Below are positions 3,307 through 38,395 of a stretch of DNA of 64,000 nucleotides, piece after piece. This DNA is from a virus. Position numbers and translations under genes: made by a program. The stretch is from positions 7,887 to 71,886 of IMG/VR virus record IMGVR_UViG_3300047168_000018; one strand, 5' to 3'. The notes under the pieces are model-generated. The model did not search any database. It had not been told where the DNA came from and saw nothing but the letters and a program-made list of their open reading frames with translations. The number at the start of each line of letters is the position of its first letter. The stretch's first letter is position 1.

Positions 3307-3882
3307 ATGCCCATCTTTCTGGACACGCGGGGCCTTGGAAATGTTGCGATTGCAATATGCGCGCGCTGTAGTTGCAAATATTCGTATACCTCGCTTAAAC
3401 CCGACCCTAACTTTCCCGGCCTGCGCTGCTGTCCCGACGGATGCCTCGACCAAATCGACCCCTGGCGGCTTGCTCCGCGTCCGACCGAGAACATCACGCT
3501 AGAGTTCGCCCGCCCCGATGTCGACATCTCGGGCTATGGCGCAACGCCAATCTACGCGCCGCCGCCATCGTCGCCCAGCTACTTCTCCAACGACGGCGGC
3601 GTGCTGGTGTTTGCGAAAGCCTCCTACGCAGTCGGCTATCCGACTTCGTTCATCGGGCCGCCGGGCGGCGTCTACAACAACGGCCTGACGGTCGGCATCT
3701 ACCCCGGCGTGACGCCAAACCCGTCTGCCCCCCCGGTTTATTTCGGGCAGATCACGCCCGCGCAGCTTCTGGCGCTCGGCGGCGGCAACCTGCCGCTTGG
3801 GGTCAACGGTGCGCCGCCAGGCACGGTGCCGGTCGGATCGAAGCAGCTTTTCAACAACGGCGACGAGGTCAACATCGCATGA
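3307..3882 (+). CDS. Cys-rich phage neck-region protein
   Basis: AIAICARC..LKPDPNFPGLRCC..CLDQIDPWRL..ENITL..ARPD; stop overlaps the next start (ATGA). Confidence 0.75.
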   Translation: MPIFLDTRGLGNVAIAICARCSCKYSYTSLKPDPNFPGLRCCPDGCLDQIDPWRLAPRPTENITLEFARPDVDISGYGATPIYAPPPSSPSYFSNDGGVLVFAKASYAVGYPTSFIGPPGGVYNNGLTVGIYPGVTPNPSAPPVYFGQITPAQLLALGGGNLPLGVNGAPPGTVPVGSKQLFNNGDEVNIA

Positions 3883-6800
3883 AGTCGGTTCTTGCCTTTC
3901 TTGTCGCAATGGTCTGGACGATGGCGGCTTATGGACAGGCCAGCCCGACCTATCAGAGCCTGACTGTGCTTGGCACGACGACGCTGGGCGGCAACTTGGC
4001 GATGCCGAGTTGGTCGCAAACCAGCAGCGCCGATGCCGCCCTGAATATCACCACCGGCAGCAACAACAGCTTCAACCTCACGGTTACCGACCATAGCAGT
4101 GCTTTCATCGGCTATCCGATGTCGCTTTATTGGATCAACCAGAACCCAGGTTTTACCGGACCTTACGAAGGTAATTATCAGCAGTATTCTCCGCTTGCCG
4201 TTGAGGGCATAAGTTCTCCTACATCTACTGGCAATACCAGCGCGGCTAATTTTGGCGTCCGTTCGTATGGCAACAATCCATCCAGCGCCTACGATGTCGA
4301 TATCAATAATCAGTGCCTGAAATACGGGCAAAACTCGAACTGGTGCTATGTCGCGAACCTGAACGATTTCAGCGGCAGGCCTGTCCAAGCCTTCGGCAAC
4401 TGGAACGAGGAACTTGACATCATCGCAAATGGGCCAGATCCGGTCCAATGGGATTCAAGTTATGCAATGCCGCACGCCGGCGGACGCGTCGGGGAATATC
4501 TGAATTTCTCGAATCTAGACCTTAGCGGCATAAGTATTGCCGCCGGTGGCTGGGCATGGGCGGCGAACACCGCCATAAAGGCCATGGGGGTCAACAAGGC
4601 GGACTATTTCGGCGCTCAAGTGCTGAAGGTCTACAATAGCTTTATCCCATACCTCTGGTATTGCGTTACTGGCGGCACGACGGGCGGTACGGAGCCGGCT
4701 TTTCCGATCCCGGCGGAGTTTGTCGGCGCCATCGCATCCGGGACGCTGACGGTCACGAATTGGCAATCGACCTCATCGCCGATTGCCGTTGGAAATTACC
4801 TGACTTGGCAGGGCGCCAACGCGGATGGCACCGTGCTGGTAGTAGCACTGGGAACCGGCACGGGCGGAAACGGAACCTACACCGTGACAGGGGCGCCGAC
4901 GACCCTCTCGGCGGTCGGTATGTATGGTGCGCCGCACATCACCGATGGCACAGCCGTATGGGCGTTTGGCGAGAATTTTCAGGAGATTGTCAGCGCCGGA
5001 ATCTGGTTCACCGGAACGGGCGCTATCGGCACCGTGATCGGCGGTTCCAACACGATCACGAATGCCGTTCTGGACACGACGCAATTCCCGATCAGCAGCG
5101 GAGGTGCCGCAATCAGGCTGGCTCATGATCAGATCATAGACCTGACTGGTGCGGGCACCACTGCATCGCAGAACCAGCACACGCTGCGCTGGTCGTCTGC
5201 AACGGGGCCGACTGGCGGATTGGCCTACACGAACCCAGACGGGACCGTGTTCGACATTCAGGACTCCAACGACATGATGGAGGCGCAAGGGATCACGTCT
5301 CTTGCGTGGGGCGCGAAGGGCAACGTCAACGGTATCGTCACCGGCTACCGTCCCGCCGGGCTGACCGTGGGCTGGAATTTCGATGGTGGGGCCGAGACCA
5401 ACCTCATGACCAATGCAAACGGGTTTTCCGTTCACACGATCAGCGCAGGGGGCGTGCCCTCGACCTCGCCGTATTTTCAGATGAATGGGTCAGGCGTTGT
5501 TACCACGAACCTTGGCCTGACCACATTTTCGCAGAGCAGCAGCGCAGATCAGGGGTTGAACCTTTCGTCCACGGCCTATGCCCTAAACCTGTCCACTACG
5601 GCCGTCACCTCCACGGGTTTCGGAGCATATCCGCTGAATCTGCAATACACAAACAACGATCCGAACTTCACCAGCCCGAGCGGCGGGAATTATCAGCAAT
5701 ACGCGCCGCTAAAGGCACGCGGCCTAATCAGTCCTGTTGGCACCGGAAACGTGAGTGCTGCGCAATTTGAAGTAGACGATTACAGCCAAAATCCGTCTGA
5801 AAGTTACAATTATCCGGTGAACCTTATTGGAGCGAAATACGGCCAATCCTCAATGTGGGGACAGGTTAATTTTCTGATAGACAAAACAGGGCGGCCACCG
5901 CAAAACATCGCGGCCTGGAACATCGAACAGGACATAGAAGCCGATGGCGCTGACTTTACGCCGTGGGACCCGAATTACTACAAGGCGATAGCAGGTTCGC
6001 GCGTTTTCAATTTTCATTCGCTTATTACTTTGCCGCAACCCGCATGGACGGCCAATACGGCTGTCGGGCCGCTTGGTGGCACTGGCGATCAATATGTCGG
6101 CGCCAATGTTATTCAGGCTACCGTTTCCGGCACTCCGTATCTTTGGTATTGCGTGACGGCTGGCACGACCGGCTCGACGCAGCCGACATGGACGGCGCCG
6201 GTTGAGTTTACTGCGACCATCGCCAGCGGGGTTATGACGGTATCAAGCGTGACGCAGGGCACGCTTGCGGTCGGTCAATACATCACGAACCAGAACTTCA
6301 TCGTTCCGGTACAGATAACGTCGCTCGGAACCGGGACGGGCGGCGTGGGAACCTATAATCTAAGCAACAGCAGCGTTTCGGTCGCTAACTCCACCGGCAT
6401 GTATGCCGCGCCCCAGGTCGCGGATGGCACGGCGGTATGGGCGTTCGGTGAAAATGCAGCTATGTCGGTCAGCGTCGGAGACTGGTGGGGCGGCAGCAAT
6501 ACCAGCACCTCTCTTAATACCGTGATCGGCGGAACTACCAGCGTTAGTGGCGGCGTGCTGGATTGTTCGCAGTTTAATCTGTATTCGTCAAATTCGGCTT
6601 GCTTGCGCGTCGGAAGCGGCCAAAAGATCGACTTGACTGGTAACGGAACGCAGGCCGGAAACAACCAGCACACTATTTCCTATACTTCGAGTGCCCTTCA
6701 ATACACTGTTGCCGGATCGGCGGCATTAACCATCACCGATACAGGCGCCATGAGTGTTTTTGGCACCTTGGGCAACACTGGCACGGCACATTTGGCTGGC

Positions 6801-7325
6801 GGCACCGCTGCAAATTTATATGGTGTTGGTTCCGGTTACAGTTCCCGTGGCCTCACGTTTGGATACAACCTTAACAACGGCAACGAGGCCGACCTGCTGG
6901 TCGGCAGTGTCGGCGGCACCGATGGTCTGCGCATCTATGGCATTGGCGGCGGCGGCTTCCTCACGTCTAGCACTCCGCTAAGTGATCTTGACCTAAACGG
7001 AGACCTAGCCCTTTCGGGCACGCTTACCTACGTCGGTCACCAGATCAACACGCAGGTCACCGCGCCCACCGTAGCCCAATCCGGCGGCACCGGCTCCACG
7101 ACGCTCGACAGCGGCGCCACCGACACGAAGGGCACTGCCACCGAAGGAACTGCGGCCACAGGCTTCGTGGTCACGTTTCACACCGCCTACGCGACCGCGC
7201 CTGATTGCGTCGTAACCAGCCCTACCGGATCGGCACTGACCAGCTACACGCCCGCGACCGGCACGCTCACCGTCGTCAACGCCGCGCTGACCGGCGCGAA
7301 GTTCACCTATGTCTGCATCCAATAG
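3879..7325 (+). CDS. fibre/spike-like protein (1148 aa) with N-terminal signal peptide and a ~500-aa tandem duplication
   Basis: ATG 3879 is coupled to the upstream stop; MKSVLAFLVAMVWTMAAYG|QA; G/T/S/N-rich beta composition; C-terminal VTFHTAY..PDCVVT..YVC tip domain. Confidence 0.8.
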   Translation: MKSVLAFLVAMVWTMAAYGQASPTYQSLTVLGTTTLGGNLAMPSWSQTSSADAALNITTGSNNSFNLTVTDHSSAFIGYPMSLYWINQNPGFTGPYEGNYQQYSPLAVEGISSPTSTGNTSAANFGVRSYGNNPSSAYDVDINNQCLKYGQNSNWCYVANLNDFSGRPVQAFGNWNEELDIIANGPDPVQWDSSYAMPHAGGRVGEYLNFSNLDLSGISIAAGGWAWAANTAIKAMGVNKADYFGAQVLKVYNSFIPYLWYCVTGGTTGGTEPAFPIPAEFVGAIASGTLTVTNWQSTSSPIAVGNYLTWQGANADGTVLVVALGTGTGGNGTYTVTGAPTTLSAVGMYGAPHITDGTAVWAFGENFQEIVSAGIWFTGTGAIGTVIGGSNTITNAVLDTTQFPISSGGAAIRLAHDQIIDLTGAGTTASQNQHTLRWSSATGPTGGLAYTNPDGTVFDIQDSNDMMEAQGITSLAWGAKGNVNGIVTGYRPAGLTVGWNFDGGAETNLMTNANGFSVHTISAGGVPSTSPYFQMNGSGVVTTNLGLTTFSQSSSADQGLNLSSTAYALNLSTTAVTSTGFGAYPLNLQYTNNDPNFTSPSGGNYQQYAPLKARGLISPVGTGNVSAAQFEVDDYSQNPSESYNYPVNLIGAKYGQSSMWGQVNFLIDKTGRPPQNIAAWNIEQDIEADGADFTPWDPNYYKAIAGSRVFNFHSLITLPQPAWTANTAVGPLGGTGDQYVGANVIQATVSGTPYLWYCVTAGTTGSTQPTWTAPVEFTATIASGVMTVSSVTQGTLAVGQYITNQNFIVPVQITSLGTGTGGVGTYNLSNSSVSVANSTGMYAAPQVADGTAVWAFGENAAMSVSVGDWWGGSNTSTSLNTVIGGTTSVSGGVLDCSQFNLYSSNSACLRVGSGQKIDLTGNGTQAGNNQHTISYTSSALQYTVAGSAALTITDTGAMSVFGTLGNTGTAHLAGGTAANLYGVGSGYSSRGLTFGYNLNNGNEADLLVGSVGGTDGLRIYGIGGGGFLTSSTPLSDLDLNGDLALSGTLTYVGHQINTQVTAPTVAQSGGTGSTTLDSGATDTKGTATEGTAATGFVVTFHTAYATAPDCVVTSPTGSALTSYTPATGTLTVVNAALTGAKFTYVCIQ

Positions 7326-7333
7326 GAACCCCA

Positions 7334-7591
7334 ATGAACCGCCCCACCATCATCCTCGCCCTCTCCCTCATCGCAGTTCCGGCTGTGGCGCAGGAAGCGC
7401 CGCAACTGCCAGCAACGCTCACCGTGCCATCCAGGGATATGGTGACCCTGATGCACTACCTTGAGACACGTCCGCTCGGTGAGGTGGCCAGCCTCTACAG
7501 TGCGCTGTCTCAAGATGTGCAACGGTCGGTCGAGGCGCAGCGCGCGCCGCCAGCGCCGCCGCAATCTAACGTGGCACCGAAAACCCCCTGA
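7334..7591 (+). CDS. small helical protein (possible fibre chaperone) with signal peptide
   Basis: AGGA SD; MNRPTIILALSLIAVPAVA|QE; LMHYLETRPLGEVASLYSAL resembles small proteins found next to phage fibres. Confidence 0.7.
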   Translation: MNRPTIILALSLIAVPAVAQEAPQLPATLTVPSRDMVTLMHYLETRPLGEVASLYSALSQDVQRSVEAQRAPPAPPQSNVAPKTP

Positions 7592-7592
7592 C

Positions 7593-7745
7593 ATGGCCGC
7601 CCAAACCTGCAACGGTTCGACGAACGTCAGTGCGATGGCCGCTGTCACGGATGCCACGTCACCGACCTACAACGCGACACTGACTGGCGGCGGTGCTGTT
7701 CATATCCCCGTCTTCTGCAACGGCACCGCCTGGACGGCGCACTGA
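7593..7745 (+). CDS. 50-aa stand-alone fibre-tip-like module
   Basis: AVTDATSPTYNATLTGGGAVHIPVFCNGTAW; stop overlaps the next ATG. Confidence 0.55.
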   Translation: MAAQTCNGSTNVSAMAAVTDATSPTYNATLTGGGAVHIPVFCNGTAWTAH

Positions 7746-8056
7746 TGGGCGTCCCCTTCACCACGATCCTGTCGGCGGCGGTCTGGAACGCCAATGCACC
7801 TTATGCGCTGGGTGCGAGCGTGGTCCCGGTCAACATCAACGACCCGGCCCAGGTGACCCCGCAGAAGCAATTCGTGTGCATCGCGGCTGGCACGTCGGGG
7901 TCGTCGCCGCCTTCATGGACGAAATCGGACGGGACAACTGTTACGGACGGCACCGTGACGTGGCTCAACTACGGATGGTGCCTTGACTGCATCACGCCCC
8001 CGCCCAGCCAATCGCCTTATGGCGGTTTTCCGTCACCCTTTCCGCCGGTGTCCTGA
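7745..8056 (+). CDS. small virion-associated protein with a CBM5/12-like aromatic motif
   Basis: WNANAPY..FVCIAAGTSGSSPPSW..VTDGTVTW; the same motif occurs twice in the 3879 protein. Confidence 0.7.
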   Translation: MGVPFTTILSAAVWNANAPYALGASVVPVNINDPAQVTPQKQFVCIAAGTSGSSPPSWTKSDGTTVTDGTVTWLNYGWCLDCITPPPSQSPYGGFPSPFPPVS

Positions 8057-8724
8057 TGCCGACCTATGTGAACTTCAGCAGCCTGATCGGCGATTTGCAG
8101 GTCTACCTCGAACGCGGTGGATCGGCGCTTACCGACCCGACGGTGTTCAACCAGCTTCCGCGCCTCATCAACGCCGCCGAGCGCAAACTCGCTCAAGTGC
8201 TGAAACTGCAGGGCACGCTCGAAGTGCTCGTCGATACCGCCGGCCTCGCCCAAGGCGTCGCCGTTGTGACAAAGCCTGATCGGTGGCGCGGCACCGTCTC
8301 GATCAATTACGGCTCGGGCGCAAATTTCAACACCCGAACCCAGCTTCTTCCCCGATCCTACGAGTATTGCCGCGCCTACTGGCCCGATGACACCGTGACG
8401 GACAGCACGAACCCCCCGTGCTTCTATGCCGATTACGACTACAACCACTGGCTGATCGTGCCGACGCCCGATCAGACATACCCGGCCGAGTTCAACTGCT
8501 ACATGCAGCCGCCGCTGCTCGACAGCACCAATCAGACGAATTTCTTCAGCGAATATACCCCGAACGCGCTGCTCTACGGTGCGCTGCTTGAGGCAACGCC
8601 GTTTCTGAAGAATGACGAAAGGTTGGCAACTTGGACGGCGATGTGGCAGCAGGAAATCCAGACACTGAGCGGGCAAGACCTCGACAAGATTCTTGATCGG
8701 GCGTCGGAGAGGAAGAACCCATGA
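8056..8724 (+). CDS. phage adaptor / tail tubular protein A-like
   Basis: LIGDLQVYLER..QLPRLINAAERKL; VPTPDQTY; TNFFSEYTPNALLYGALLEATPFLKNDER. Confidence 0.75.
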   Translation: MPTYVNFSSLIGDLQVYLERGGSALTDPTVFNQLPRLINAAERKLAQVLKLQGTLEVLVDTAGLAQGVAVVTKPDRWRGTVSINYGSGANFNTRTQLLPRSYEYCRAYWPDDTVTDSTNPPCFYADYDYNHWLIVPTPDQTYPAEFNCYMQPPLLDSTNQTNFFSEYTPNALLYGALLEATPFLKNDERLATWTAMWQQEIQTLSGQDLDKILDRASERKNP

Positions 8725-10481
8725 CCGCCGGCTCATCTTTTGTTCAGACGTTCGGCGGTTCCGCCATCCGGCCTGCCCAGCCCTCCTACGAGGCGCTGAC
8801 GATCGCCGCCAACCAAGCCCTTGTCTGGCCGCTCGAAAGTGCCGGGGGCGTGCCCTATGTCGCGGCGGTCATGGGGGTCACGGCTTCGGCGAACGGGCTG
8901 CAACTCCAAATGCCGCCTGGCAACCTCGGCTCGAACGGCGCGCAGGCCATCGTGATGAACCTCGGGACGGACAGTTTCACCGTCACCGACACGGCGGGCA
9001 ATCCGATCTGCACGATCACGACGACGCAGGCATGGGTCATCACGCTCACGGACAACACGACGACAAACGGCTCGTGGCTCGCAATCCAGCTTGGCTCGAC
9101 CGTCTCGCAGGCGGTCGCATCTGCGCTGGCGGGCTACGGGCTTGAGGCTGTCGGCACCCAGCTTTGGGCAAACTGGCCGACGACAACGGTCTCGGCGACA
9201 GGAACAATCGGGGCGAGCGAGCGCAGCAACGCGATCGTCTGGACCGGCGCGACCGGGACGCTTCAGTTGGCCGGGATCGCCGCGACGCTCGGCATCGGCT
9301 GGTTCGCGGCGATCAGCAATCTCGGAACCGGGGCGCTGACGTTGGAGACATCCGGCGCGGACACGATCAACGGCGCAGGCAGCGTCATCCTCCAGCCGGG
9401 CAACTCGGGCCTGATCGTCGCCGGGTCGGGGGAGTTCGTGACCTTCGGACTGCTTCCGGTTCCGCTGTCCATCGCCGACGGGGGCACGGGGGCGACAAGC
9501 GCGCCGGCCGCACTGACCGCCCTCGGCGGGACCGCTCTTGGAACGTCGATCTTCACGGCGGCTTCGGCGGCGGCGGTGCTTTCCCTGCTCGGGATCAATG
9601 CGTCGATTTTCACCGAAAACACCGTGACGACGAGCCAGACGCTCGCCGCCGGTTCCAGCGGGACGATTTTCGTCACCGCGACGACGGGGCTGACGTTCAC
9701 CCTTCCGCTGACAACGACGCTGACGAAATCCTTCGTCGTCGGGTTCACCACAAGGGGCTATGCGGCAACCATCGCGCCCCAGGCGGCCGATACGATCTTC
9801 GGTTTGTCCGAGGGGGCTTCGTTTACGCTGCCGACGAATTGCTCCCTGATTCTCGTCACGGACGCCAACGGCAAATGGTGGCCGGTAATGTGCGGGCCAA
9901 CCATGACGAGCGGGGGCGGCATGTCTTTTGCCGGCAGCGTTACCGTTGGGGTTAATCTGACCGTTGACAACACACTGACCGTTGACGATGGCATAGCGAT
10001 GGCGACAGGAACCGGGATCGGGTTCGGCGCCAATTTGTATTTCAACGACACGGGATCACAAGCCTTTGGAATGCGGACTGGCGGCAGCGGTAATTCAAAA
10101 TACTTTACGTTCGACGCAAGCGGCAACGGGAATGCCCTCAACGGTTCCTGGGTCAACGGTTCCGATGGGCGGCTGAAATCCGATCAGCAGCCGATCACCC
10201 CACAGGAAGGGCTTGCCTACTGCCTCTCCGGTCTGCCGATGACCTACACGATGGGCGGCGTGCGCAAAGCCGGCTTCATCGCGCAGCATGACCTGAAGGA
10301 CACCGCCAGGGCCATCGCGATCAGCCAGCTTCCGAACAAGGAAATGAAGGCCGATGCCGAAAGCCCGGAAGGCATCCAGTTCGGTCGCGACTACGCCCAG
10401 GACAACGCCTACACCCAAGCGGCGATTCAGGCGCTCGCGGCGAAAATCGCCGAACTTGAGGCGAAGCTGGCGGCGAAATGA
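8721..10481 (+). CDS. tail fibre with C-terminal peptidase S74 intramolecular chaperone
   Basis: PLSIADGGTGATS fibre motif; SDGRLKSD..GFIAQ..AIQALAAKIAELE. Confidence 0.8.
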   Translation: MTAGSSFVQTFGGSAIRPAQPSYEALTIAANQALVWPLESAGGVPYVAAVMGVTASANGLQLQMPPGNLGSNGAQAIVMNLGTDSFTVTDTAGNPICTITTTQAWVITLTDNTTTNGSWLAIQLGSTVSQAVASALAGYGLEAVGTQLWANWPTTTVSATGTIGASERSNAIVWTGATGTLQLAGIAATLGIGWFAAISNLGTGALTLETSGADTINGAGSVILQPGNSGLIVAGSGEFVTFGLLPVPLSIADGGTGATSAPAALTALGGTALGTSIFTAASAAAVLSLLGINASIFTENTVTTSQTLAAGSSGTIFVTATTGLTFTLPLTTTLTKSFVVGFTTRGYAATIAPQAADTIFGLSEGASFTLPTNCSLILVTDANGKWWPVMCGPTMTSGGGMSFAGSVTVGVNLTVDNTLTVDDGIAMATGTGIGFGANLYFNDTGSQAFGMRTGGSGNSKYFTFDASGNGNALNGSWVNGSDGRLKSDQQPITPQEGLAYCLSGLPMTYTMGGVRKAGFIAQHDLKDTARAIAISQLPNKEMKADAESPEGIQFGRDYAQDNAYTQAAIQALAAKIAELEAKLAAK

Positions 10482-12049
10482 CAAAGCCTTTTTCGCTCGA
10501 CTTCCAATCCGGCATCCAGCGCGACGGCACGCAACTGGACGCCAAGCGGTGCCTGGAAGCCCTTTGGTGCAGGTGGCGGCTTCAGCGCCCCCGCAAAATG
10601 GGCGGCTTTCAGCAGATCAGCGATCAGCTAAACGGCATCCCCCGGCGGCTTCACGTCTTCTATAACAACGGCCTCAACTACGCTCACATCGGAACATCGG
10701 CCGGCATCCAGCAGGTCGTGTTCGACAACAACGGCAATTTCGTCAGCATCGCCGACCGAACGCCGACGACATTCCTCGGCGGCGTGGATGTCGGCTTTAC
10801 CTTCGATGCGATCTTCGACACGACAAGCGGTGTCGTTCAGCTGGTCGGACACTCGGTTCCCGATCTCGGAAACTTGTCGTCGAGTATCCAGACCGTGCCT
10901 TTCATTGGCGACATCACATCGGTTACCCCGCTTTCGCCCTTCAGCAATCCGGGCACGATCCCGAGCGGGACGTGGATACAGCCATCGGTCGCCGGCGGTA
11001 TCGTCTGCGTCCAACCGTTCGTGTTCGACTTTGATTCGAGTGGCCTTGTGCAATGGTCGGCCCCCAACCTTCCCCTGTATCTCGGGGTGACGGGAGGCGA
11101 GACCGGCGCGGGGCAGGCCCGAATTTCGGCGCAGAAGATTGTCGCCGGGACAGCACTTCGCGGCGGCGGCGTTCAAAGCCCGGCGGCTTTGTTCTGGTCG
11201 CTGTCGGAAGTCATCACCGCAACCTATGTCGGCACGCCCGCGTGGTTTGCTTTCAACACGATCTCGCCGTCGTCCTCGATCATTTCAAGCGATGCGGTGA
11301 TCGAGTATGACGGGCTCTATTTCTGGTGCGGCATCGACCGCTGGCTGGTGTTCAACGGCACCGTCACCGAAGTTCCGAACAACCAGAATCAGGACTGGTT
11401 CTTCGACAACCTGACGCCTGGCTACGAGTCCCGCACCTTCGCCTTCAAGGTGCCGCGCTACGGCGAAATCTGGTGGTGTGCGTGCATGTTCGGCGCGACC
11501 GAGCCGAATTACGCGGTGATCTACAATCTGCGCGAGAACGCTTGGTACGACACGCAGCTGCCGGGATCTGGAAGGGGGGCCGGGTATTTCGCCCAGGGCT
11601 TCCGCTATCCCCTCATGTGCGGGCTGGACCCGGGACCGCAGGGCTACTCGCTGTGGATGCACGAGGTCGGCACCGATCAGGTCGCGGGGAATACGCGATC
11701 CGCGGTGCGCAGCTACTTCGAGACGCCCTGGTTCGGGGGGCCGGTCGACAATCCCCCTGACGATAGAGGGCTTCAGTTCGCGGAGTTCGAGCCCGACATC
11801 ATCCAATCGGGAGACCTGTCCTGCTATCTCATCGGGGCGGCAAACGCCCGGGCGCAGCAGAACTCCGGGCCATCCGTTCCCATCGTCGCCGTGCCCTCCG
11901 GGCCGGCCGAGCAGTTCGCTTCGTTCACCCCGACACAGTCCCAACGGCTGACCCGGATGCACGTCGAGTCGAACGTCGTCGGGGGCAACTACATCATCGG
12001 ACGGGGAATCGGCCACGGAGCGCCGGCCGAGGCGCGGATCAAGGGGTAA
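10478..12049 (+). CDS. tail nozzle / tail tubular protein B-like (P22 gp10-like)
   Basis: GIQRDGT; RPRKMGG; VIEYDGLYFWCG.DR; KVPRYGEIWW; AVIYNLRENAWYD; size and position. Confidence 0.7.
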   Translation: MTKPFSLDFQSGIQRDGTQLDAKRCLEALWCRWRLQRPRKMGGFQQISDQLNGIPRRLHVFYNNGLNYAHIGTSAGIQQVVFDNNGNFVSIADRTPTTFLGGVDVGFTFDAIFDTTSGVVQLVGHSVPDLGNLSSSIQTVPFIGDITSVTPLSPFSNPGTIPSGTWIQPSVAGGIVCVQPFVFDFDSSGLVQWSAPNLPLYLGVTGGETGAGQARISAQKIVAGTALRGGGVQSPAALFWSLSEVITATYVGTPAWFAFNTISPSSSIISSDAVIEYDGLYFWCGIDRWLVFNGTVTEVPNNQNQDWFFDNLTPGYESRTFAFKVPRYGEIWWCACMFGATEPNYAVIYNLRENAWYDTQLPGSGRGAGYFAQGFRYPLMCGLDPGPQGYSLWMHEVGTDQVAGNTRSAVRSYFETPWFGGPVDNPPDDRGLQFAEFEPDIIQSGDLSCYLIGAANARAQQNSGPSVPIVAVPSGPAEQFASFTPTQSQRLTRMHVESNVVGGNYIIGRGIGHGAPAEARIKG

Positions 12050-12288
12050 TGCTCGTCATCGACCCGCGATTTCTCGACGTGATCCGCTGGACGGCAGAGA
12101 CCGGGGCGCAACTGGCTTCCTACGGCACGATCGGGCGGCTGCTCAACCCCGACGGCTGGCGCGAGTGGGGGCAGGGGGTTGTGTCGATCCCGGCCGTGCA
12201 GGCGTTGAACCCGCCCGAGCCGTCGCGGTATCCGGTCTGGTCGGATTGGGCGCTTGCCTTGAACCAGACCCTTGTGCATCTGGCGTAG
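12049..12288 (+). CDS. small Trp-rich virion protein
   Basis: Coupled start; GWREWG..PEPSRYPVWSDWA. Confidence 0.7.
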   Translation: MLVIDPRFLDVIRWTAETGAQLASYGTIGRLLNPDGWREWGQGVVSIPAVQALNPPEPSRYPVWSDWALALNQTLVHLA

Positions 12289-12350
12289 CCCCTTCCGTTT
12301 TCGGTTCAACCGATGATAATGTGCCCTGGCGTTGGCCCTGGGCGGTCGGC

Positions 12351-12371
12351 GGGACGTGTTCGCAACACTCC
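12351..12371 (+). repeat. hairpin element copy C (GTGTT-CGC-AACAC)
   Basis: Same TGYT-N3-ARCA core; about 35 nt downstream of TGATAAT (extended -10-like). Confidence 0.45.
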
Positions 12372-12410
12372 TGGCCGGGGACCGTCGTGCAATCCACCGA
12401 CTTCAAGGGC

Positions 12411-12623
12411 ATGGTCGACGCCGCCATCACCGGCTCGAAGCGCCGGATGGCAAGGGGCGGCAAGGTCAAGAAACCGAACCTGACCGTCATCATCATGGCC
12501 CCGCCGCCAATTCCCGGCCCGGCAATGCAGCAGCGTCCCCTGCCCCCGCACATCCCGATCCTCGGCGCCCTGGCGCACGCGGTCATCATGCACCACGCCG
12601 CCCGCAAGCTGGCCCGGCGATGA
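12411..12623 (+). CDS. small basic/Pro-rich protein with MARGGKV motif (alternative start 12447)
   Basis: RRMARGGKVKK..ILGALAH; stop overlaps the GNAT start. Confidence 0.55.
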   Translation: MVDAAITGSKRRMARGGKVKKPNLTVIIMAPPPIPGPAMQQRPLPPHIPILGALAHAVIMHHAARKLARR

Positions 12624-14748: not shown

Positions 14749-14808
14749 GCGCGCTTCAGGTTCAATCGCCTGTTTTCGTTCCATTCTACGTTTGGCATAA
14801 TGACGAGG

Positions 14809-14845
14809 CGCCGGCTGTTACCAGCAGCACGGCGCCTCTGACCAC
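14809..14845 (+). repeat. hairpin element copy B upstream of the GIY-YIG gene
   Basis: CGCCGGCTG-ttaccag-CAGCACGGCGCC-tc-TGACCAC, preceded by CATAAT. Confidence 0.7.
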
Positions 14846-14864
14846 TTCACGAGTAAGGGGCTCG

Positions 14865-33370: not shown

Positions 33371-33414
33371 TGCTTGAGCCTGGGGGGATAAGCGTCTAAA
33401 AGCGATGCTGCATT

Positions 33415-33463
33415 GGGTTGGCGCGATGCCGCCGGCCGGACCTTCCTCTGTCCGGAGCGCCCA
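33415..33463 (+). promoter_or_regulatory. leader motif copy 2 (GGCGCGATGCC hairpin plus SD-sequestering hairpin)
   Basis: GGGTTGGCGCGATGCCGCCGGCCG; the CCGGAC..GTCCGG stem overlaps GGAG. Confidence 0.55.
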
Positions 33464-33799: not shown

Positions 33800-34146
33800 T
33801 GCCGATAGCCCGGGCCGGCATCGAATACCTGGCGCCCACCAGCGGGATCAGCGGCCTGAGCGCCGCCACCGTTGCCGCCGCAGGCACCAACCAGGCCACC
33901 GCGACGCAACTTACCCTCGCGCGCAACTACGTCGAAAGCGGCACCGGCGGCGTGAAACTGCCCCAGGCTGCTTCCTTCGGCGGCAGCATCGTCCCCGTCT
34001 ACAACCGCAGCGGCGCGACTTTCACCGTCTATCCGTATCTCGGGGACACGCTTGAGACGAACGCGGTGAACGTCGGCTTCACGCTCGCAAACAATCAGAC
34101 GGGCTATTTCTCCGTGGACAATTCGGGCGTTGTGAGGATGGCATGA
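33799..34146 (+). CDS. small virion-associated protein
   Basis: Coupled start; AAGTNQATATQL..GVKLP..VYNRSG..VYP..GDT. Confidence 0.7.
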   Translation: MPIARAGIEYLAPTSGISGLSAATVAAAGTNQATATQLTLARNYVESGTGGVKLPQAASFGGSIVPVYNRSGATFTVYPYLGDTLETNAVNVGFTLANNQTGYFSVDNSGVVRMA

Positions 34147-36335
34147 TGCGCAAGATCATCGGGGCCGTTCTCGGCTGCCTCATCGCGGCCGGCGCTATCG
34201 GGTCGGCTCATGCGCAGGCATTGGATGCCCGCAACAACCTGTCGGATCTGAAAAACCCGGCCGCCGCTCTTGCGAATCTCGGCGCTGCCGCGACCTTCAC
34301 GCCCGCCTTTTATGGTGCCATCTGCAACGGTGTCTCGAACCCGATCAGCGGCACGTCGCTGCCGCAAACCGTCGCCGGTCTTGCCGCCTACACCAATGCC
34401 GCCGGCCAGACGCCATATTCGTGGCTGACGAACGGCAACTGGTATTTCCACGTCGCCCTCGTGCTGCCGAACGGCGCGACGAACGGCTCGACCAATCTCA
34501 CGGTCTACAGCGTCGCCGGCCTTGCGGCGGGGATGATCGTCACCAGCACGACGACGGGCGCGATCCCGACGAACGACACGATCGCCTCGGTTCATGCCGC
34601 GTCCGGCTCGGCGCTGCCCTACATCACGCTGACGACCGCAACGACGGCTGCAATCCCCGTCTATCAGGTGAGCAGCACCAACACGAACTACATTGAGGTC
34701 AAGCAGGCGTCGGGAACGCAGCCGACCGACGCGCAGATCGCGGCGGCCGAGGTCGACTGGCTTGCGGTGCAGTCTGCCATTCAGGCGGCCTCGGTCGCGA
34801 CCGGCGTCAACGGCGGCGGCAACGTCGTCCTGCCGTCCAGCGAGTGCATGATGTCCAACGCCTCGTCGCCCGGAACGGCGGTCGGCACGTTGATGATCCC
34901 GGCGGTTTCGTCCGATGTGAACTGGACCGGCACCGGCATGAACATCATGTCCGCCGGCACGCCGATCAACGCCGTGCTGTATTGGCCGACCGATCTTGGC
35001 GCCGGCCGCTATGGCCTGAGCGCGGACGTGCCGTGGGCGGACCCGGCAAACGGCGCGGGCCGCTACGGCTATAATTTCTACTACGGCAAGCTGGATGGCG
35101 TGCAGCTTCTTGGGCCGGGCGCGAACTTCACGCTCGGTGCCGCGCCGACCGTTGCCATGACCGGGTATGCCGATGGCGCGCGTCGCCGGCTGGATTTCGC
35201 GGCGGTGCGCGGGTTCCTGAACGGCGTGTCATTCCTGGGCGATCACTCGCCCTGGTATGACGTGGAACTGAACGCCAACCAGCAATACGGCGCCTATTGG
35301 GACTATCCCAATGCGTCGCTCGGTGGGGATAATTACTGCTATTCGTGCCAGTTTTCCGGCAACGGCTTCGCCGGCATCGCCATCAACTATGCCGCGACGA
35401 ACAACTGGTATCTCGACGGAAGCTATGACGCGGACAATCCCTGCGCGCTCTATGGCGAGCCAATCCCGTCAGGCGCACCGGCTGCGGGTATGACGACCGC
35501 GGCGTTCCACGTCGTCAACGGGAATTGGGAGTGGAACTACGTTCAGGTCAAGGACCAGACCGGCGGCACATTCACCTACAACAACGGCGCGATCACCGGC
35601 GTTACTGACGGGACTGCCTCGCGCCAGTTCGCCGGGACTTTTGACTCGGTGTATTTCTCGGCTGCCGGCTACGGTGGCCCGAACCCGACGATCCCGGCGT
35701 TCTCAAACCGGGCGACCGTGGATGTCGGAAACATAGGCCCGCTGCATTTGATCCACGGGTCCGACTTCTCGGCTGGCGGCACGAACGGGGACTTCGGCAC
35801 GGCGTCGCTGTTCAATGCCGGAGTGGTGGGCGAGCCGGGTGGCGGTCTCTACATGCAGGGGGACATCACGGCCCTGATCGCGGATTTGAACGCGAACGGA
35901 AAGCAGTTCATCAACGGGTCTGCCTCCAACTATTTCTACAACACCAAGCTGGAAGAACTCGGCGAATACACCGCGCGCCTTTACTCGGTCAGCCCCAGCT
36001 ATTGCTCGGGCGGCACGCCGACCGTTGGCCAAGTCGTCGAACTGATCCAGTCCTGCGCGGGTGGTGCTGTGTCGGTTGGCGGCTACGCAGCCTCTGCCCC
36101 CGTGCTGGGCGTCCTGGCCTCGGGCATCGCGTCCGGCGTCGGCATCATCATCAACTCGGGGGCCAACGTCTCCGTCAAAGCCGGCGGCACGATTGCCTTC
36201 GGCTACTACGTGAAGAAGTCGACGAACGGCACCGTCGTTCAGGCGACGGGCATCACGGACAGCGCCATCGGGATTGCCGGAAGTGCTATCGCGAACGGTT
36301 CGACGGGGGGCATTGATTTGTTCCTGATCCCATGA
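34143..36335 (+). CDS. tailspike/beta-helix-like protein with signal peptide and DUF2190-like C-terminus
   Basis: MRKIIGAVLGCLIAAGAIGSAHA|QA; NNLSDL..ALANLG; AVQSAIQAA..GGNVVLPS; VKAGGTIAFGYYV..NGTVV..AIGIA. Confidence 0.75.
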   Translation: MMRKIIGAVLGCLIAAGAIGSAHAQALDARNNLSDLKNPAAALANLGAAATFTPAFYGAICNGVSNPISGTSLPQTVAGLAAYTNAAGQTPYSWLTNGNWYFHVALVLPNGATNGSTNLTVYSVAGLAAGMIVTSTTTGAIPTNDTIASVHAASGSALPYITLTTATTAAIPVYQVSSTNTNYIEVKQASGTQPTDAQIAAAEVDWLAVQSAIQAASVATGVNGGGNVVLPSSECMMSNASSPGTAVGTLMIPAVSSDVNWTGTGMNIMSAGTPINAVLYWPTDLGAGRYGLSADVPWADPANGAGRYGYNFYYGKLDGVQLLGPGANFTLGAAPTVAMTGYADGARRRLDFAAVRGFLNGVSFLGDHSPWYDVELNANQQYGAYWDYPNASLGGDNYCYSCQFSGNGFAGIAINYAATNNWYLDGSYDADNPCALYGEPIPSGAPAAGMTTAAFHVVNGNWEWNYVQVKDQTGGTFTYNNGAITGVTDGTASRQFAGTFDSVYFSAAGYGGPNPTIPAFSNRATVDVGNIGPLHLIHGSDFSAGGTNGDFGTASLFNAGVVGEPGGGLYMQGDITALIADLNANGKQFINGSASNYFYNTKLEELGEYTARLYSVSPSYCSGGTPTVGQVVELIQSCAGGAVSVGGYAASAPVLGVLASGIASGVGIIINSGANVSVKAGGTIAFGYYVKKSTNGTVVQATGITDSAIGIAGSAIANGSTGGIDLFLIP

Positions 36336-36661
36336 GCGACGAACCCCGCGAACCGGCCTGGCACGGGTTCTGGAACTTCAACATCGGCCACGTCCTCATC
36401 ATTGGCGGGATGATCGGCAGCGCGTGGGTGGTGGTGAACAACGTCGAGATCACGCTCGCGGATCACGGCACGCGGATCAGCAATCTTGAGAAGGAAATGA
36501 CCGAAAGCCGTCGCGAGACACAGCAATGGCAGCAGGGGATTTCCGACCAGTTAAACGGCATCGCGCGCGAGGTCTCGCGGCTTCAGGGGCAGGTGAACAT
36601 GATGATCCCGCCGGGTCGGCGCGGCGATATCGGCACCGATGATCTGACGGGTGGCGGGTGA
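36332..36661 (+). CDS. holin-like membrane protein (1 TM plus coiled coil)
   Basis: FNIGHVLIIGGMIGSAWVV; directly upstream of the endolysin. Confidence 0.55.
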   Translation: MSDEPREPAWHGFWNFNIGHVLIIGGMIGSAWVVVNNVEITLADHGTRISNLEKEMTESRRETQQWQQGISDQLNGIAREVSRLQGQVNMMIPPGRRGDIGTDDLTGGG

Positions 36662-37293
36662 TGTCCAACAACTTCGACCGCTGCGTCGCCGTCACGCTTG
36701 CCTACGAAGGCGGCTTCGTCGACAACCCGGCCGACCCCGGCGGTGCCACGAATTTCGGCATCACGCTGCGCACCCTCGAAGCCTTCCTGGGCGAGCCTGT
36801 CACGGTCGATGACGTACGCAACATGACCGTCGACACCGCGACCGCGATCTACGGCGCGAATTACTGGAACGCGATGCGCTGCTCCGCGCTGCCGCCCGGC
36901 GTCGATATGGCGCTGTTCGACTTCGGTGTGAACTCGGGCATAGGGCGCGCGGTGCGGACGCTTCAGCGCATCGTCAGCGTCGCGCAGGACGGCTCTGTCG
37001 GGCCGGCCACCATCGGCGCGGTTCAGGAATGGCGGCCGGCCGATCTCGTGACATCGCTGTGCTCGGCGCGGCTGGCGTTTCTGCGCGGGCTCCCGACGTT
37101 CGCCGAGTTTGGCAACGGCTGGACGACGCGGGTCAAGGACGTGGCGGGAAGGGCGCTGGCGATGGTGGCGGGAGCGGGGCCTGTCGTGCCGGCTGCGCCC
37201 CCGTCAGAGCCGGCCACGTCCGGCCCCGACAATTCGGCTGACGCGCTCATGGCGCAAGAGCAAGCGACGCTTGACGAGGAACCTTCCTCCTGA
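36661..37293 (+). CDS. endolysin, glycoside hydrolase family 108 with peptidoglycan-binding domain
   Basis: EGGFVDNPADPGGATNFGIT; FDFGVNSG; DGSVGPAT; FGNGWTTRV. Confidence 0.92.
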   Translation: MSNNFDRCVAVTLAYEGGFVDNPADPGGATNFGITLRTLEAFLGEPVTVDDVRNMTVDTATAIYGANYWNAMRCSALPPGVDMALFDFGVNSGIGRAVRTLQRIVSVAQDGSVGPATIGAVQEWRPADLVTSLCSARLAFLRGLPTFAEFGNGWTTRVKDVAGRALAMVAGAGPVVPAAPPSEPATSGPDNSADALMAQEQATLDEEPSS

Positions 37294-37461
37294 GCGAGGA
37301 CCAGAAATATCCGCAGCCACACGGCTCGGTGTCGGTGCCCGGCGCAGAACCGCCCCGGCGCGAGCCGCCGCACTACAGGCCCCGGCGCGGGTTCTGGCGG
37401 CTTGAGCGTCACATCCGCGCCGTACTCGAGAAACCCGACCGCGACAAAAGAGGAGAATGAC

Positions 37462-37731
37462 ATGAACGAACCGACCGACGGGCTGGCGCAGTACCAGTCC
37501 ATCAAGACAGTGCTGGCCGGCAGGATCACCGAGGTCGTGCCGGCCGGCTGCTACGTGCAGGAAGCCAACGGCATCGCGTCGGTGTTCCGCGTGTTCGAGG
37601 AAGGCATGACCGTCCGGTATCAGCCGCAGGTCGGCGATTACTGGGTCGTGTATCAGCCCGATGGCTACCAGAGCATCTCGCCGAAGGCGGTGTTCGAGGC
37701 CGGCTACGTGCTCATGCACAAGGAGGCTTGA
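37462..37731 (+). CDS. conserved small phage protein (GDY..Y.DGY.S.SPK.VFE.GY family)
   Basis: GAGGAG SD; PQVGDYWVVYQPDGYQSISPKAVFEAGY. Confidence 0.75.
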   Translation: MNEPTDGLAQYQSIKTVLAGRITEVVPAGCYVQEANGIASVFRVFEEGMTVRYQPQVGDYWVVYQPDGYQSISPKAVFEAGYVLMHKEA

Positions 37732-37733
37732 CC

Positions 37734-38012
37734 GTGGGAAGCAACGCGACTGCCGCGACCGCGGCGACTGCCACCGGCGGCGCGAGTGCCGCGCTGATCG
37801 TGCTGGTGTGGGTGCTGGGCCTGTTTCACATCACGCTGCCGGCCGATGTCGGGGCGGCGTTCATCATGCTGGTCGGCCCGGCGATTCACGGCATCTGGCT
37901 TCGGTACGTGACGCCGCAGCTGCCGACCGAGCCGACGGCGATGGTGCCGGTGACGATCGAGGCTCCCGCGCCGGTGCAGGCAAAGGCCGCCGGAACGCTG
38001 CCCGTCCTGTGA
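37734..38012 (+). CDS. two-TM holin-like protein
   Basis: AGGAGG SD; two hydrophobic segments; within the lysis region. Confidence 0.6.
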   Translation: MGSNATAATAATATGGASAALIVLVWVLGLFHITLPADVGAAFIMLVGPAIHGIWLRYVTPQLPTEPTAMVPVTIEAPAPVQAKAAGTLPVL

Positions 38013-38395
38013 CCCGGATCGCCTGGCTGTTGCTGGCGGGAGTGATCGGCGCCTGCGGGATCGTGCTGGTGTGCTGCGGACTCGTCGGCCTCGCACACGC
38101 AGCGCCACCGCAGAACCCCGACCCGGTGCTGCACCGATGGTTCGAGACCCAGCACAGCGTTGCCGGCGCGTGGTGCTGCGATGTCGCCGACGGCTACATC
38201 CTGGCCGACAAGGACTGGCACCAGGCCGGCGATCACTACGAGGTCCGCATCGACGACAAGTGGCACCCCGTTCCGGCCGATGCGCTGCGCGACCCGCTTG
38301 GCGGCCCGAACCCCACCGGAGCGGCGATCGTGTGGTATCGCGGCTTCGGCGTCGACCTTCACATCTACTGCTTCACCCCAGGCTATGAGTACTAG
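38009..38395 (+). CDS. secreted Cys-containing protein
   Basis: Signal peptide ending AHA|A; WF..G.WCCDVADG..HYEVRI..W.PVP..NPTG.AIVW..IYCFTPG. Confidence 0.7.
   Translation: MTRIAWLLLAGVIGACGIVLVCCGLVGLAHAAPPQNPDPVLHRWFETQHSVAGAWCCDVADGYILADKDWHQAGDHYEVRIDDKWHPVPADALRDPLGGPNPTGAAIVWYRGFGVDLHIYCFTPGYEY

Follow-up and report, generated by a model that had tools for sequence, protein, structure and literature searches.

Sec-type leaders on fibre-like and spike-like proteins of a podovirus and their possible role in the periplasm

Gene layout and translation starts of the late region

The window, that is, the whole stretch of 64,000 nucleotides that was analyzed (positions 7,887 to 71,886 of IMG/VR record IMGVR_UViG_3300047168_000018), is part of a 72-kb short-tailed phage (podovirus), a high-GC podovirus that is probably alphaproteobacterial. 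The following features are relevant here (strand after the coordinates).

3307..3882, +: 191-aa leaderless Cys-rich protein, no family match in Pfam, PHROGs or NCBIfam
3879..7325, +: 1148-aa fibre-like protein with a leader (residues 1-19), two tandem modules of ~500 aa and a C-terminal domain
3879..3935, +: leader-coding part of the 1148-aa gene, n-h-c layout
7334..7591, +: 85-aa small ORF with a 19-aa leader, a helical part and a Pro-rich tail
7745..8056, +: 103-aa leaderless protein (phrog_20658 'head decoration', E 2e-9)
8056..12049, +: tail core, consisting of an SU10-type adaptor (8056-8724), a tail fibre (8721-10481) and a nozzle-like protein (10478-12049) (PF24175, E 7.5e-23; phrog_1980, phrog_3287)
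34143..36335, +: 730-aa spike-like protein with a leader (residues 1-24), a short linker, a beta-helix into which a further domain is inserted, and ~120 aa of C-terminal domain
34143..34214, +: leader-coding part of the 730-aa gene, second ATG at 34146
36332..38012, +: lysis genes (TM/coiled-coil protein, GH108 endolysin, 89-aa ORF, holin-like protein)
36332-36661, +: TM plus coiled-coil protein, first gene of the lysis group
36658-37293, +: GH108 endolysin (PF05838, E 5e-28; PF09374; phrog_315)
37728-38012, +: holin-like protein (phrog_9284 holin, E 2.6e-5)
38009..38395, +: 128-aa protein, first ~23 hydrophobic residues in one N-terminal run, no family match in Pfam, PHROGs or NCBIfam
38416..38757, +: 113-aa Ala/Pro-rich lipoprotein with an LAGC lipobox, leader score 11.2, GGAG 7 nt upstream

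A preliminary description of this DNA had assigned Sec signal peptides to the 1148-, 85-, 730- and 128-aa proteins, and the coordinates, lengths and N-termini of these four ORFs were confirmed. The 191-aa gene (3307-3882) is translationally coupled to the 1148-aa gene by an ATGA overlap at 3879; the 730-aa gene overlaps its preceding gene in the same way at 34143, and the 38009 gene has a frame-specific GC3 as well as a GTGA overlap with the holin-like gene. The 85-aa ORF is preceded by AGGA 6 nt upstream of its start. Upstream of 3879, GC3 is 0.52 in the fibre frame, which is non-coding-like, versus 0.76 in the overlapping 3307-3882 gene. Because the starts are thus fixed by upstream genes and by base composition, the leaders lie inside the genes. 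The 1148-aa gene itself has a foreign base composition (GC 0.576, GC3 0.67 versus 0.76-0.87 in neighbouring genes).

Both large leader-bearing genes lie outside the adaptor-fibre-nozzle core that this phage has in common with Caulobacter phages. The three core proteins are 53%, 36% (N-terminal 244 aa) and 38% identical to gp069c, gp068c and gp067c of Caulobacter phage GB2A, which makes particles with one leaderless fibre. The protein at 8721, previously described as an ordinary S74 fibre without a leader, is indeed leaderless and a tail fibre according to PHROGs, but the S74 label was not reproduced (0 families in Pfam). Residues 1-72 of the 191-aa protein are 56% identical to GB2A gp074c (tblastn) and are joined to a 115-aa extension of its own; the protein atlas returned nothing usable for this protein. 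The 85-aa ORF, which adjoins the fibre gene, has a single relative (P0132) with identical first 20 residues and a diverged mature part, and matched no chaperone or other family in Pfam, PHROGs or NCBIfam. In NCBIfam, 0 families were matched among 12 window proteins.

Predicted leaders, folds and cysteines

Leaders were scored with a home-made heuristic based on the n-h-c layout and the -3/-1 residues, and the leader call rests on this crude score together with the homologs. Five of 55 ORFs scored above 10, namely the 1148-aa (10.5), 85-aa (12.2), 730-aa (11.9) and 38009 (13.0) proteins and the lipoprotein at 38416-38757, which the preliminary description had not listed; the best remaining ORF reached 8.5. 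As a control, positions inside 35 proteins from this phage were scored, and none of 258 internal-Met positions and none of 2188 sampled internal positions reached 10 (0/2446 in total), which bears out the Sec-type leaders claimed for the 1148-, 85- and 730-aa proteins. Their n-regions are positive (Lys2, Arg3 and Arg3-Lys4; net charge +1, +1 and +2, respectively), their hydrophobic cores span 9-12, 14 and 15 residues (mean Kyte-Doolittle 3.17, 2.72 and 2.55), and small residues occupy -3/-1 before Gln/Ala, with no Pro at +1 (A-Y-G or T-M-A in the 1148-aa protein, A-V-A in the 85-aa protein, A-H-A in the 730-aa protein). The mature chains had been expected to start with Gln; Gln can follow the site in all three, but the heuristic preferred a cut 4 residues earlier in the 1148-aa protein.

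The 38009 protein had been grouped with the exported appendages, an assignment that we do not retain. Its core of 18 or more residues (~23 by eye) is a poor fit to the 7-15-residue core of Sec/SPase I substrates, and this run and its position behind the holin-like gene fit a lysis-cassette signal anchor better. It is probably a signal-anchored membrane protein of the lysis cassette in an i-spanin-like position, and the 38416-38757 protein looks like an o-spanin-like or exclusion-type lipoprotein. The pair combines an N-terminal hydrophobic anchor and an LAGC lipobox behind the endolysin and holin-like genes; neither protein matched a spanin family in PHROGs or NCBIfam.

The 730-aa protein is predicted to fold into a right-handed beta-helix like those of tailspikes and polysaccharide lyases (AF2 with a 64-sequence alignment, pLDDT 88, pTM 0.87). 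The model matched tailspikes and polysaccharide lyases/epimerases with VIA Z 24.6-18.6, among them 7chu (Z 24.6), 8ja4 (23.6) and CBA120 TSP2 (22.5), each of these three over ~290-310 aligned residues with an rmsd of 2.6-3.4. Residues 2-31 are drawn as one low-confidence helix (pLDDT 48-69), and a linker of low confidence (residues 25-50, pLDDT 48-59) leads to the beta-helix cap, which begins near residue 50; past the leader, the full-length model shows no anchor-like domain. The C-terminal ~120 aa are of the phage cement/decoration type (Foldseek, TMt 0.7-0.8 to small phage structural proteins). In Pfam the protein itself matched 0 families, PF12708 included, and 14 of its 64 aligned relatives matched PF12708 (best E 6.6e-15), so its membership rests on profile and fold, not on the curated model. 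A fibre-like 'NLSDL...NLG' stretch directly after the leader recurs in two leader-bearing proteins of locus L003; as a family trait it was rejected, being found among the 112 relatives only in the window protein itself (1/112).

Homologs of the 730-aa protein support the leader call. Aligned leaders are present in nine of the ten closest relatives, with the position kept while the sequence drifts, and of the 112 relatives 27 reach the strict score and 38 the lenient one, a number that rises to 41 once Tat-like leaders are counted too, which suggests that this family is often exported. The cysteines add to this. Of 64 aligned relatives, 13 have the C61/C235 pair and every one of these bears a leader, whereas the pair is found in 0 of 37 leaderless relatives, which mostly have G/Y there (Fisher p 1.5e-6, without tree correction). 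On the tree the pair changed at least 3 and up to 6 times; a tree-aware test, which is underpowered, gave 2-3 pairs in the same direction and 0 in the opposite one (p ~0.5). The limitation of this pair to leader-bearing relatives argues for real export and oxidative folding. The closely spaced Cys pairs noted earlier do exist, but Cys density as a sign of export was ruled out, as it is comparable or higher in virion proteins without a leader (per 100 aa, the two large leader proteins have 0.70 and 1.10, the 8721 fibre 0.68, the nozzle 1.53 and the adaptor 1.35).

The two halves of the 1148-aa protein are 41% identical over 517 aa (E 6e-119). The module begins ~25 residues past the leader cut, with no anchor domain between. 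It was found in 21 viral loci, in 18 of them on proteins without a leader at the first start, seven of which have classic fibre N-termini by eye, and the 103-aa protein (7745..8056) shares a mini-domain with it, with tblastn matches inside the fibre-module genes of loci L017-L024. Relatives in Acetobacter are also leader-bearing, and from these sequences the leader appears to stand in place of a particle anchor both here and in the Acetobacter prophages. One Acetobacter homolog is part of a moron-like island that separates terminase from portal and also holds a SodC-like precursor gene in reverse orientation beside it; three Acetobacter species share this homolog with >90% conservation, on contigs as long as 1.15 Mb. 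Two scans of genome contigs gave no match, so the chromosomal context of this homolog is known only from two IMG/VR fragments. The fibre profile had 0 matches in a PDB sequence search, and the module gave only sub-threshold viral clusters at 0.85 in the protein atlas. For the 1148-aa and 730-aa proteins, tblastn against 50,697 phage records gave no match, and searches of viral contigs with single proteins found no related locus. Leader-bearing genes do recur elsewhere: a myovirus (G001) has three besides canonical leaderless fibres, and fibre-like ones lie in the structural modules of unrelated phages (three genes in L003, four in L025). L025 was rejected as a relative of the core of this phage.

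Comparison with known systems and rival readings

A cultured podovirus with similar leaders is Cellulophaga phage phi18:3 (KC821620, Pachyviridae), in which the consecutive large proteins gp085, gp086 and gp087 (547, 785 and 559 aa) score 10.0, 10.2 and 11.1 with the same heuristic and have Gln after the likely cut. Its record annotates all three as structural proteins 'based on experimental MS/MS proteomics analysis' and leaves the leaders unmentioned, so leader-bearing proteins can end up with particles. Holmfeldt et al. 2013 is reportedly the source paper of this record. The phi18:3 host belongs to the Bacteroidota, and the likeness to the window's proteins lies in the leaders.

The beta-helix fold of the 730-aa protein is that of tailspikes such as Sf6 TSP, CBA120 TSP1/TSP2, K2-2 TSP, LKA1 gp49 and Det7/Dettilon gp208 (Z 22.5 for CBA120 TSP2, 22.4 for K2-2, 20.6 for Sf6 and 19.5 for Dettilon), and its gene is placed as tailspike genes are, closing the structural module just ahead of the lysis genes. 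However, these tailspikes have leaderless N-terminal particle-binding domains and are assembled in the cytoplasm, whereas the 730-aa protein has a leader at the place of the anchor. The fold is shared as well with exported bacterial enzymes that remodel the cell's own matrix, namely Vibrio cholerae RbmB (Z 21.4), Azotobacter AlgE4/AlgE6 (22.0) and the alginate epimerase/lyase 8ja4 (23.6), although these are monomeric, cellular, not phage-encoded and without the phage cement-like C-terminal domain. Other phage late-region genes whose products work at the cell envelope are those for lambda Lom and Bor and for PblA and PblB of Streptococcus mitis phage SM1. PblA and PblB are tail-fibre-like and double as surface adhesins, but they lack leaders and are brought to the surface by phage lysis, and Lom and Bor are not fibres but small proteins of the outer membrane. 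A further right-handed beta-helix is the stewartan hydrolase WceF of Pantoea stewartii (PDB 6tgf, Z 18.6 to the 730-aa model), whose N-terminal export signal is removed and which acts on the producer's own exopolysaccharide (PMC7949094). WceF has a Tat signal, is encoded on the chromosome within an EPS synthesis cluster and retains a head-binding domain of the P22 type, whereas the 730-aa protein, encoded by the phage as part of a late operon, bears a Sec-type leader and lacks such a domain.

Judging from sequence, the 1148-, 730- and 85-aa proteins very probably reach their mature form in the periplasm, and not in the cytoplasm, the site of particle assembly. The reading that we prefer, with a probability of about one half, is that they are exported soluble or envelope-located proteins acting on glycans, and that the particle relies on the leaderless fibre of the tail core (8721-10481). 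The two large glycan-binding or glycan-cutting proteins and the 85-aa protein would be produced late in infection, with cleavable Sec leaders. SecYEG would pass them to the periplasm, signal peptidase I would remove the leader, probably leaving an N-terminal Gln, and oxidative folding would follow, in the 730-aa protein including a C61-C235 bond at the N-terminal beta-helix cap. Having matured there, the 1148- and 730-aa proteins could therefore not be built into the particle in the cytoplasm. They would instead serve as enzymes or adhesins that act on the surface polysaccharide of the host itself, first from within the periplasm and, once holin and endolysin have lysed the cell, outside it, where clearing capsule, EPS or receptor would keep progeny from being trapped and let them reach neighbouring cells. 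In favour of this reading are the leaders with their conservation and Cys pair, the beta-helix shared with exported bacterial enzymes, the lack of an anchor domain after either leader, the place of both large genes outside the GB2A core, the island of the Acetobacter homolog, the foreign composition of the 1148-aa gene, and the myovirus G001 with its leader-bearing genes besides leaderless fibres. Against it, both large genes are coupled to late structural genes, the proteins carry phage-type extras (the cement-like C-terminal domain and the fibre-like stretch), gp085-087 of phi18:3 bear leaders and are annotated as structural, Cys density is not elevated, and the tree-aware test of the Cys/leader link has little power. 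The preliminary description had proposed export, oxidative folding and attachment to particles, or else free or surface depolymerases or adhesins. Leader conservation and the Cys pair support its Sec export and oxidative folding; attachment was neither shown nor excluded, and the depolymerase or adhesin alternative fits at least as well.

A less probable but serious contender is a periplasmic route for virion appendages, in which the fibre and spike, already exported, processed and disulfide-bonded, would encounter particles made in the cytoplasm only once holin, endolysin and spanins have breached the envelope, and would attach at that point. They might attach to the 191-aa protein with its extension, encoded directly upstream; alternatively, the cement-like C-terminal domain might bind the head. 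The late-operon position with translational coupling, the phage-type domain make-up, the presence of the fibre module on bona fide leaderless tail fibres elsewhere and the recurrence of leader-bearing fibre-like genes in structural modules of unrelated phages (L003, L025) all favour it, as does the 191-aa protein, which corresponds to a small conserved protein from the head-tail region of GB2A to which a 115-aa extension has been added. The leader-bearing gp085-087 of phi18:3 are annotated as structural by MS/MS, and 0 of 9 other checked MS-annotated proteins have a leader; however, MS of purified particles cannot separate bound parts from co-purifying envelope debris. Further points against docking are the missing anchor domain behind either leader, a tail core that is complete without the two large genes, and the moron-like island of the Acetobacter homolog. 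In its broadest form, which we regard as only slightly less probable, several tailed-phage lineages would have a second, periplasmic assembly line, and the virion would be finished outside the cytoplasm just after the envelope opens, in this phage with the 191-aa protein or the cement-like domain as dock. Host-recognition parts made in this way would be Sec-exported, trimmed, disulfide-bonded and in some hosts perhaps glycosylated.

It is improbable that the genes are lysogenic-conversion cargo, comparable to the lambda late-operon morons lom and bor, that would be expressed from a prophage and remodel the lysogen surface (exclusion, adhesion, biofilm control), with the late-operon place being incidental. 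The Acetobacter island, with its reversed SodC-like precursor gene and its >90% conservation in three species, and the foreign composition of the 1148-aa gene would agree with this, but no integrase or repressor was present among the ORFs scanned, and the stop/start overlaps leave no promoter room directly upstream of 3879 or 34143. Least probable of all, in our view, is that the hydrophobic N-termini are not export signals but result from wrong starts or are retained helices that tether the proteins to membranes or nucleate trimers in the cytoplasm. The leader score is home-made, and AF2 draws the 730-aa N-terminus as a single helix; against this, the next in-frame Met lies at residue 43 (1148-aa protein) or beyond residue 100 (730-aa protein), the leaders are conserved in position and not in sequence, the n-region and the -3/-1 residues are canonical, and the Cys pair is restricted to leader-bearing relatives.

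Implications for phage assembly and host surface glycans

To our knowledge, tailed-phage assembly is wholly cytoplasmic, and we know tailspike-type depolymerases as virion parts or leaderless soluble by-products. In openly accessible full-text literature, we found no paper that describes Sec leaders for the tail fibres or tailspikes that tailed phages encode. What this window contributes is a sequence-level argument for leader use, the Cys pair that appears only with the leader. From a practical perspective, engineering of depolymerases or host range that relies on cytoplasmic expression of leader-bearing 'fibres' would yield misfolded protein, and predictors of host range that equate every fibre-like gene with a virion receptor-binding protein would be misled. 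From a biological perspective, routing tailspike-type proteins through Sec would change the place and time of their action, as nascent capsule, EPS or O-antigen could be reached in the periplasm before lysis, in an oxidizing folding environment that permits disulfides. If these proteins also dock on particles, the assembly pathway itself would be changed.

Leader-bearing genes and their starts

The preliminary description had read classic signal peptides at the start of four proteins: a 1148-aa fibre-like protein, the 85-aa protein encoded behind it, a 730-aa spike-like protein, and a 128-aa protein starting at position 38009. A re-reading of the ORFs gave the same four N-termini, and the gene starts are well fixed from their context. 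The ATG at 3879 overlaps the stop codon of the preceding 191-aa gene (ATGA), the ATG at 34143 overlaps the stop codon of a 117-aa ORF (with a second ATG at 34146), the GTG at 38009 overlaps the stop codon of a holin-like gene, and the 85-aa ORF has an AGGA 6 nt upstream. GC3 is 0.52 in the long open frame that precedes 3879, against 0.76 in the real gene in the other frame, and the 38009 frame is also fixed by frame-specific GC3.

Leaders, meaning N-terminal Sec-type signal peptides, were scored with our own script, a home-made heuristic combining n-region charge, an uncharged hydrophobic core and the −3/−1 rule. A score above 10 was obtained for five of the 55 ORFs, and the next best reached 8.5. 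As a control, 35 proteins of the same phage were scored at internal positions, and a score of 10 was reached at none of 258 internal methionines and none of 2188 sampled positions; the leaders are not due to chance.

Leader-bearing ORFs of the window and their leader scores
3879–7325, +, fibre-like protein, 1148 aa, 10.5
7334–7591, +, 85-aa protein, 12.2
34143–36335, +, spike-like protein, 730 aa, 11.9
38009–38395, +, 128-aa protein (38009 protein), 13.0
38416–38757, +, lipoprotein with a LAGC lipobox, 113 aa, 11.2

In the 85-aa protein, the 19-aa leader is followed by a helical segment and a tail rich in Pro; the protein has no Cys and no family match in Pfam, PHROGs or NCBIfam. The only relative found, P0132, is identical over the first 20 residues and diverged to less than half identity in the mature part (48% identity overall in a MAFFT alignment), and the two may represent an export cassette that is conserved while its payload changes rapidly. 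For the 38009 protein, the N-terminus is as described, but the hydrophobic run of ~23 residues and the position in the lysis cassette point to a signal-anchored lysis protein rather than an appendage. It has 128 aa and 6 Cys, lies between the holin-like gene and the LAGC lipoprotein, and has what would be the place and shape of such a protein. It and the lipoprotein resemble a pair of separate spanins or an exclusion pair; no family match was found for either protein in PHROGs or NCBIfam.

Relatives, folds and cysteines of the two large proteins

A word-indexed search returned one full-length relative of the 730-aa protein (45% identity, leader present), and an exhaustive HMMER search with that pair returned 112 proteins at E ≤ 0.001. 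By our own score, 27 of these carry a strict Sec-type leader, 38 a lenient one, and 41 a lenient or a Tat-like twin-arginine one. The leader stands at the same place in nine of the ten closest relatives, with little sequence identity inside it; P0016 lacks it, and P0010, with a borderline score of 8.0, was counted as leader-bearing by eye. An AF2 model based on a 64-sequence alignment (pLDDT 88.0, pTM 0.87) shows a helix for the leader and a linker of low confidence in residues 1–50, then a right-handed beta-helix into which a domain is inserted, and a C-terminal domain of ~120 aa. Foldseek against viral models returned pectate-lyase-type tailspikes and, for the C-terminal domain, small phage structural, "scaffold" or cement-like proteins (TMt 0.7–0.8). 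Pfam PF12708 matches 14 of the 64 relatives and not the 730-aa protein of the window itself.

VIA-align Z scores against the 730-aa model
Geobacillus virus E2 ORF18, 24.6
Alginate epimerase/lyase, 23.6
CBA120 TSP2, 22.5
K2-2 tailspike, 22.4
AlgE4, 22.0
RbmB, 21.4
Sf6 tailspike, 20.6
WceF, 18.6

Closely spaced Cys pairs had also been brought forward as a sign of oxidative folding. Such pairs are present (146/156, 896/908 and 1110/1146 in the 1148-aa protein), but Cys density is not raised, with 0.70 and 1.10 Cys per 100 aa in the two large leader-bearing proteins against 0.68 in the leaderless fibre, 1.53 in the nozzle and 1.35 in the adaptor. A pair linked to the leader is found in the 730-aa family, where positions 61 and 235 are both Cys in 13 of 64 aligned sequences. 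Position 61 falls on the fourth residue of a "YGAxGDG"-type N-terminal motif and position 235, usually Tyr, belongs to the first helix rung; judging from how these two motifs usually pack, C61 would lie near C235 in the fold. All 13 sequences with the pair have a leader, as do 14 without it, and none of the 37 leaderless sequences has the pair (mostly Gly/Tyr, with a lone Cys at 61 in one); Fisher's test gives p = 1.5e-6, for relatives that are not independent. On a FastTree tree built with both Cys columns masked, the pair requires six changes, at least three of them forced by well-supported branches, and every appearance falls in a leader-bearing lineage. An independent-pairs sign test had too few pairs (two to three in the same direction, none opposite, p about 0.5). 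A double Cys change that occurs only with the leader is as expected if the leader takes the protein to an oxidising compartment.

Behind its leader, the 1148-aa protein consists of two tandem modules of ~500 aa (41% identity over 517 aa, E 6e-119) and a C-terminal domain, and it has no match in Pfam, PHROGs, NCBIfam or PDB sequences. Its gene is foreign in composition, with a GC of 0.576 and a GC3 of 0.67 vs 0.76–0.87 in neighbouring genes. One group of relatives is made up of 709-aa proteins from Acetobacter persici, A. cerevisiae and A. malorum that have leaders of their own (a cluster of 12); the proteins of the other group, of 1218–1224 aa, have repeats and the leaderless N-termini of classic fibres. 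The module is encoded at 21 loci in IMG/VR, three of which have a leader (L006 and L010, of the Acetobacter type, and L025). The other 18 have none at the first start codon, the choice of start being uncertain for some (e.g., L012), and seven of these have usual tail-fibre-type N-termini by eye. Since the module is found on both leader-bearing and leaderless fibre-type proteins, it is a swappable fibre tip or enzyme unit. The mature 1148-aa chain starts ~25 residues before the module, and the leader stands where other proteins have a particle anchor. The gene with the leader in L006 is flanked by those for the large terminase (E 4e-111) and the portal (E 1.5e-94) and adjoins reversed genes, one coding for a SodC-like precursor, which makes this a moron-like island.

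Conserved tail core and leader-bearing genes in other phages

The window spans bases 7887–71886 of a single virus contig of 71,886 bp; its G+C content is about 64%, and no tRNA gene was found in it. The nearest cultured relatives are the Caulobacter phages GB2A, RW, RLK and KcrB (nozzle identity 38%). Identities to GB2A are 71% for the capsid, 53% for the adaptor and 36% for the N-terminal 244 aa of the fibre.

Recognised genes of the contig
Late operon, just upstream of the window, +, HK97-type capsid gene (PF25209)
Late operon, +, SU10-type adaptor (PF24175, E 7.5e-23)
Late operon, +, tail fibre and nozzle-like protein (phrog_1980, phrog_3287)
Late operon, +, ejection proteins, one a 5084-aa DarB-like giant
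Late operon, +, lysis cassette with GH108 endolysin and holin-like gene
Beyond the late operon, recombination and replication genes (RecT, DnaB, initiator, methylase)

The adaptor, fibre, nozzle, small protein and ejection proteins are in identical order in GB2A, which however lacks counterparts of the 1148-aa, 85-aa, 103-aa and 730-aa genes. As its N-terminal 244 aa are common to the GB2A fibre, the 586-aa fibre (8721–10481) is the anchored fibre of the tail; the S74 domain previously assigned to it was not recovered by Pfam. Residues 1–72 of the 191-aa protein are 56% identical to GB2A gp074c (77 aa) and are followed by a 115-aa extension of its own. With its gene directly before the leader-bearing 1148-aa gene, it is conceivable as a candidate docking piece for that protein. 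No GB2A-like portal, GB2A-like large terminase or terminal repeat was found on the whole contig, which may therefore be incomplete; alternatively, the packaging genes may be of an unrecognised type. The minus strand has a weak match to a small terminase at 38759–39706.

Other genes deserve mention in their own right. The 5084-aa ORF (18116–33370, +), presumably an ejected internal protein, matches a DarB-like antirestriction family in its middle part (phrog_10089, E 0) and has an N-terminal transglycosylase, a peptidase-like part, and methyltransferase and helicase regions. No family match covers the C-terminal 1084 aa. A GIY-YIG homing endonuclease gene (14745–15704, +, phrog_314, E 9e-27) lies in the tail module between the tape-measure-like and ejection-protein genes; GB2A has homing endonucleases at other sites. 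A 376-aa protein (2081–3211, +; 34% identity to GB2A gp075c) has a sugar-binding domain of F5/8 type C (discoidin) inserted into it (PF00754, E 3.5e-9), and a 305-aa protein (607–1524, +) with no family matches has a strikingly His-rich stretch with many H-H and HxH runs.

Leader-bearing genes also occur in rows elsewhere. A 49.8-kb myovirus contig (94% complete) has three consecutive ones (608, about 497 and 819 aa), flanked by neck genes on one side and the sheath on the other, and also encodes canonical leaderless fibres behind the baseplate. L025, a 62-kb viral contig unrelated to the core of the window phage, has four in a row (6996–14260; 593, 651, 145 and 276 aa) that follow large genes of the ejection type, and the first of the four has a tail-spike-type N-terminal motif. 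In Cellulophaga phage phi18:3 (KC821620), gp085, gp086 and gp087 are annotated as "structural protein" from experimental MS/MS proteomics, and their leader scores (10.0, 10.2 and 11.1) all pass, as those of the window proteins do; none of nine other MS-annotated structural proteins checked in this phage passes.

Proposed site of action of the leader-bearing proteins

Sec leaders, beta-helix tailspike-type enzymes and fibre modules are each of a known kind. We found no paper on the combination of a leader with a tailspike or fibre in a tailed-phage late operon in full-text searches of the literature outside subscription journals and supplements.

Export of the large leader-bearing proteins is well supported by the sequences, as the leaders are canonical and the starts fixed, the leader is conserved as a feature and not as a sequence, and the 730-aa family is rich in Sec and Tat leaders and has a leader-linked Cys pair. 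It is very unlikely that there is no real export. That these genes are cargo expressed from a prophage is improbable as well; no integrase gene turned up in the ORFs scanned. A more serious alternative, possible if still doubtful, is that the exported proteins dock to particles at lysis, in favour of which are the coupling to the late operon, the phage-type extra domains and the precedent of phi18:3.

The reading we prefer, to which we give a probability of about one half, is that the large leader-bearing proteins are soluble or envelope-located proteins that degrade or bind glycans. No anchor domain was seen in them and their genes lie outside the conserved core; a homolog is moron-like and the composition is foreign; and the fold is common to exported enzymes of the WceF, RbmB and AlgE type. 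Such proteins would act on glycans from the periplasmic side and, once the cell has lysed, extracellularly.
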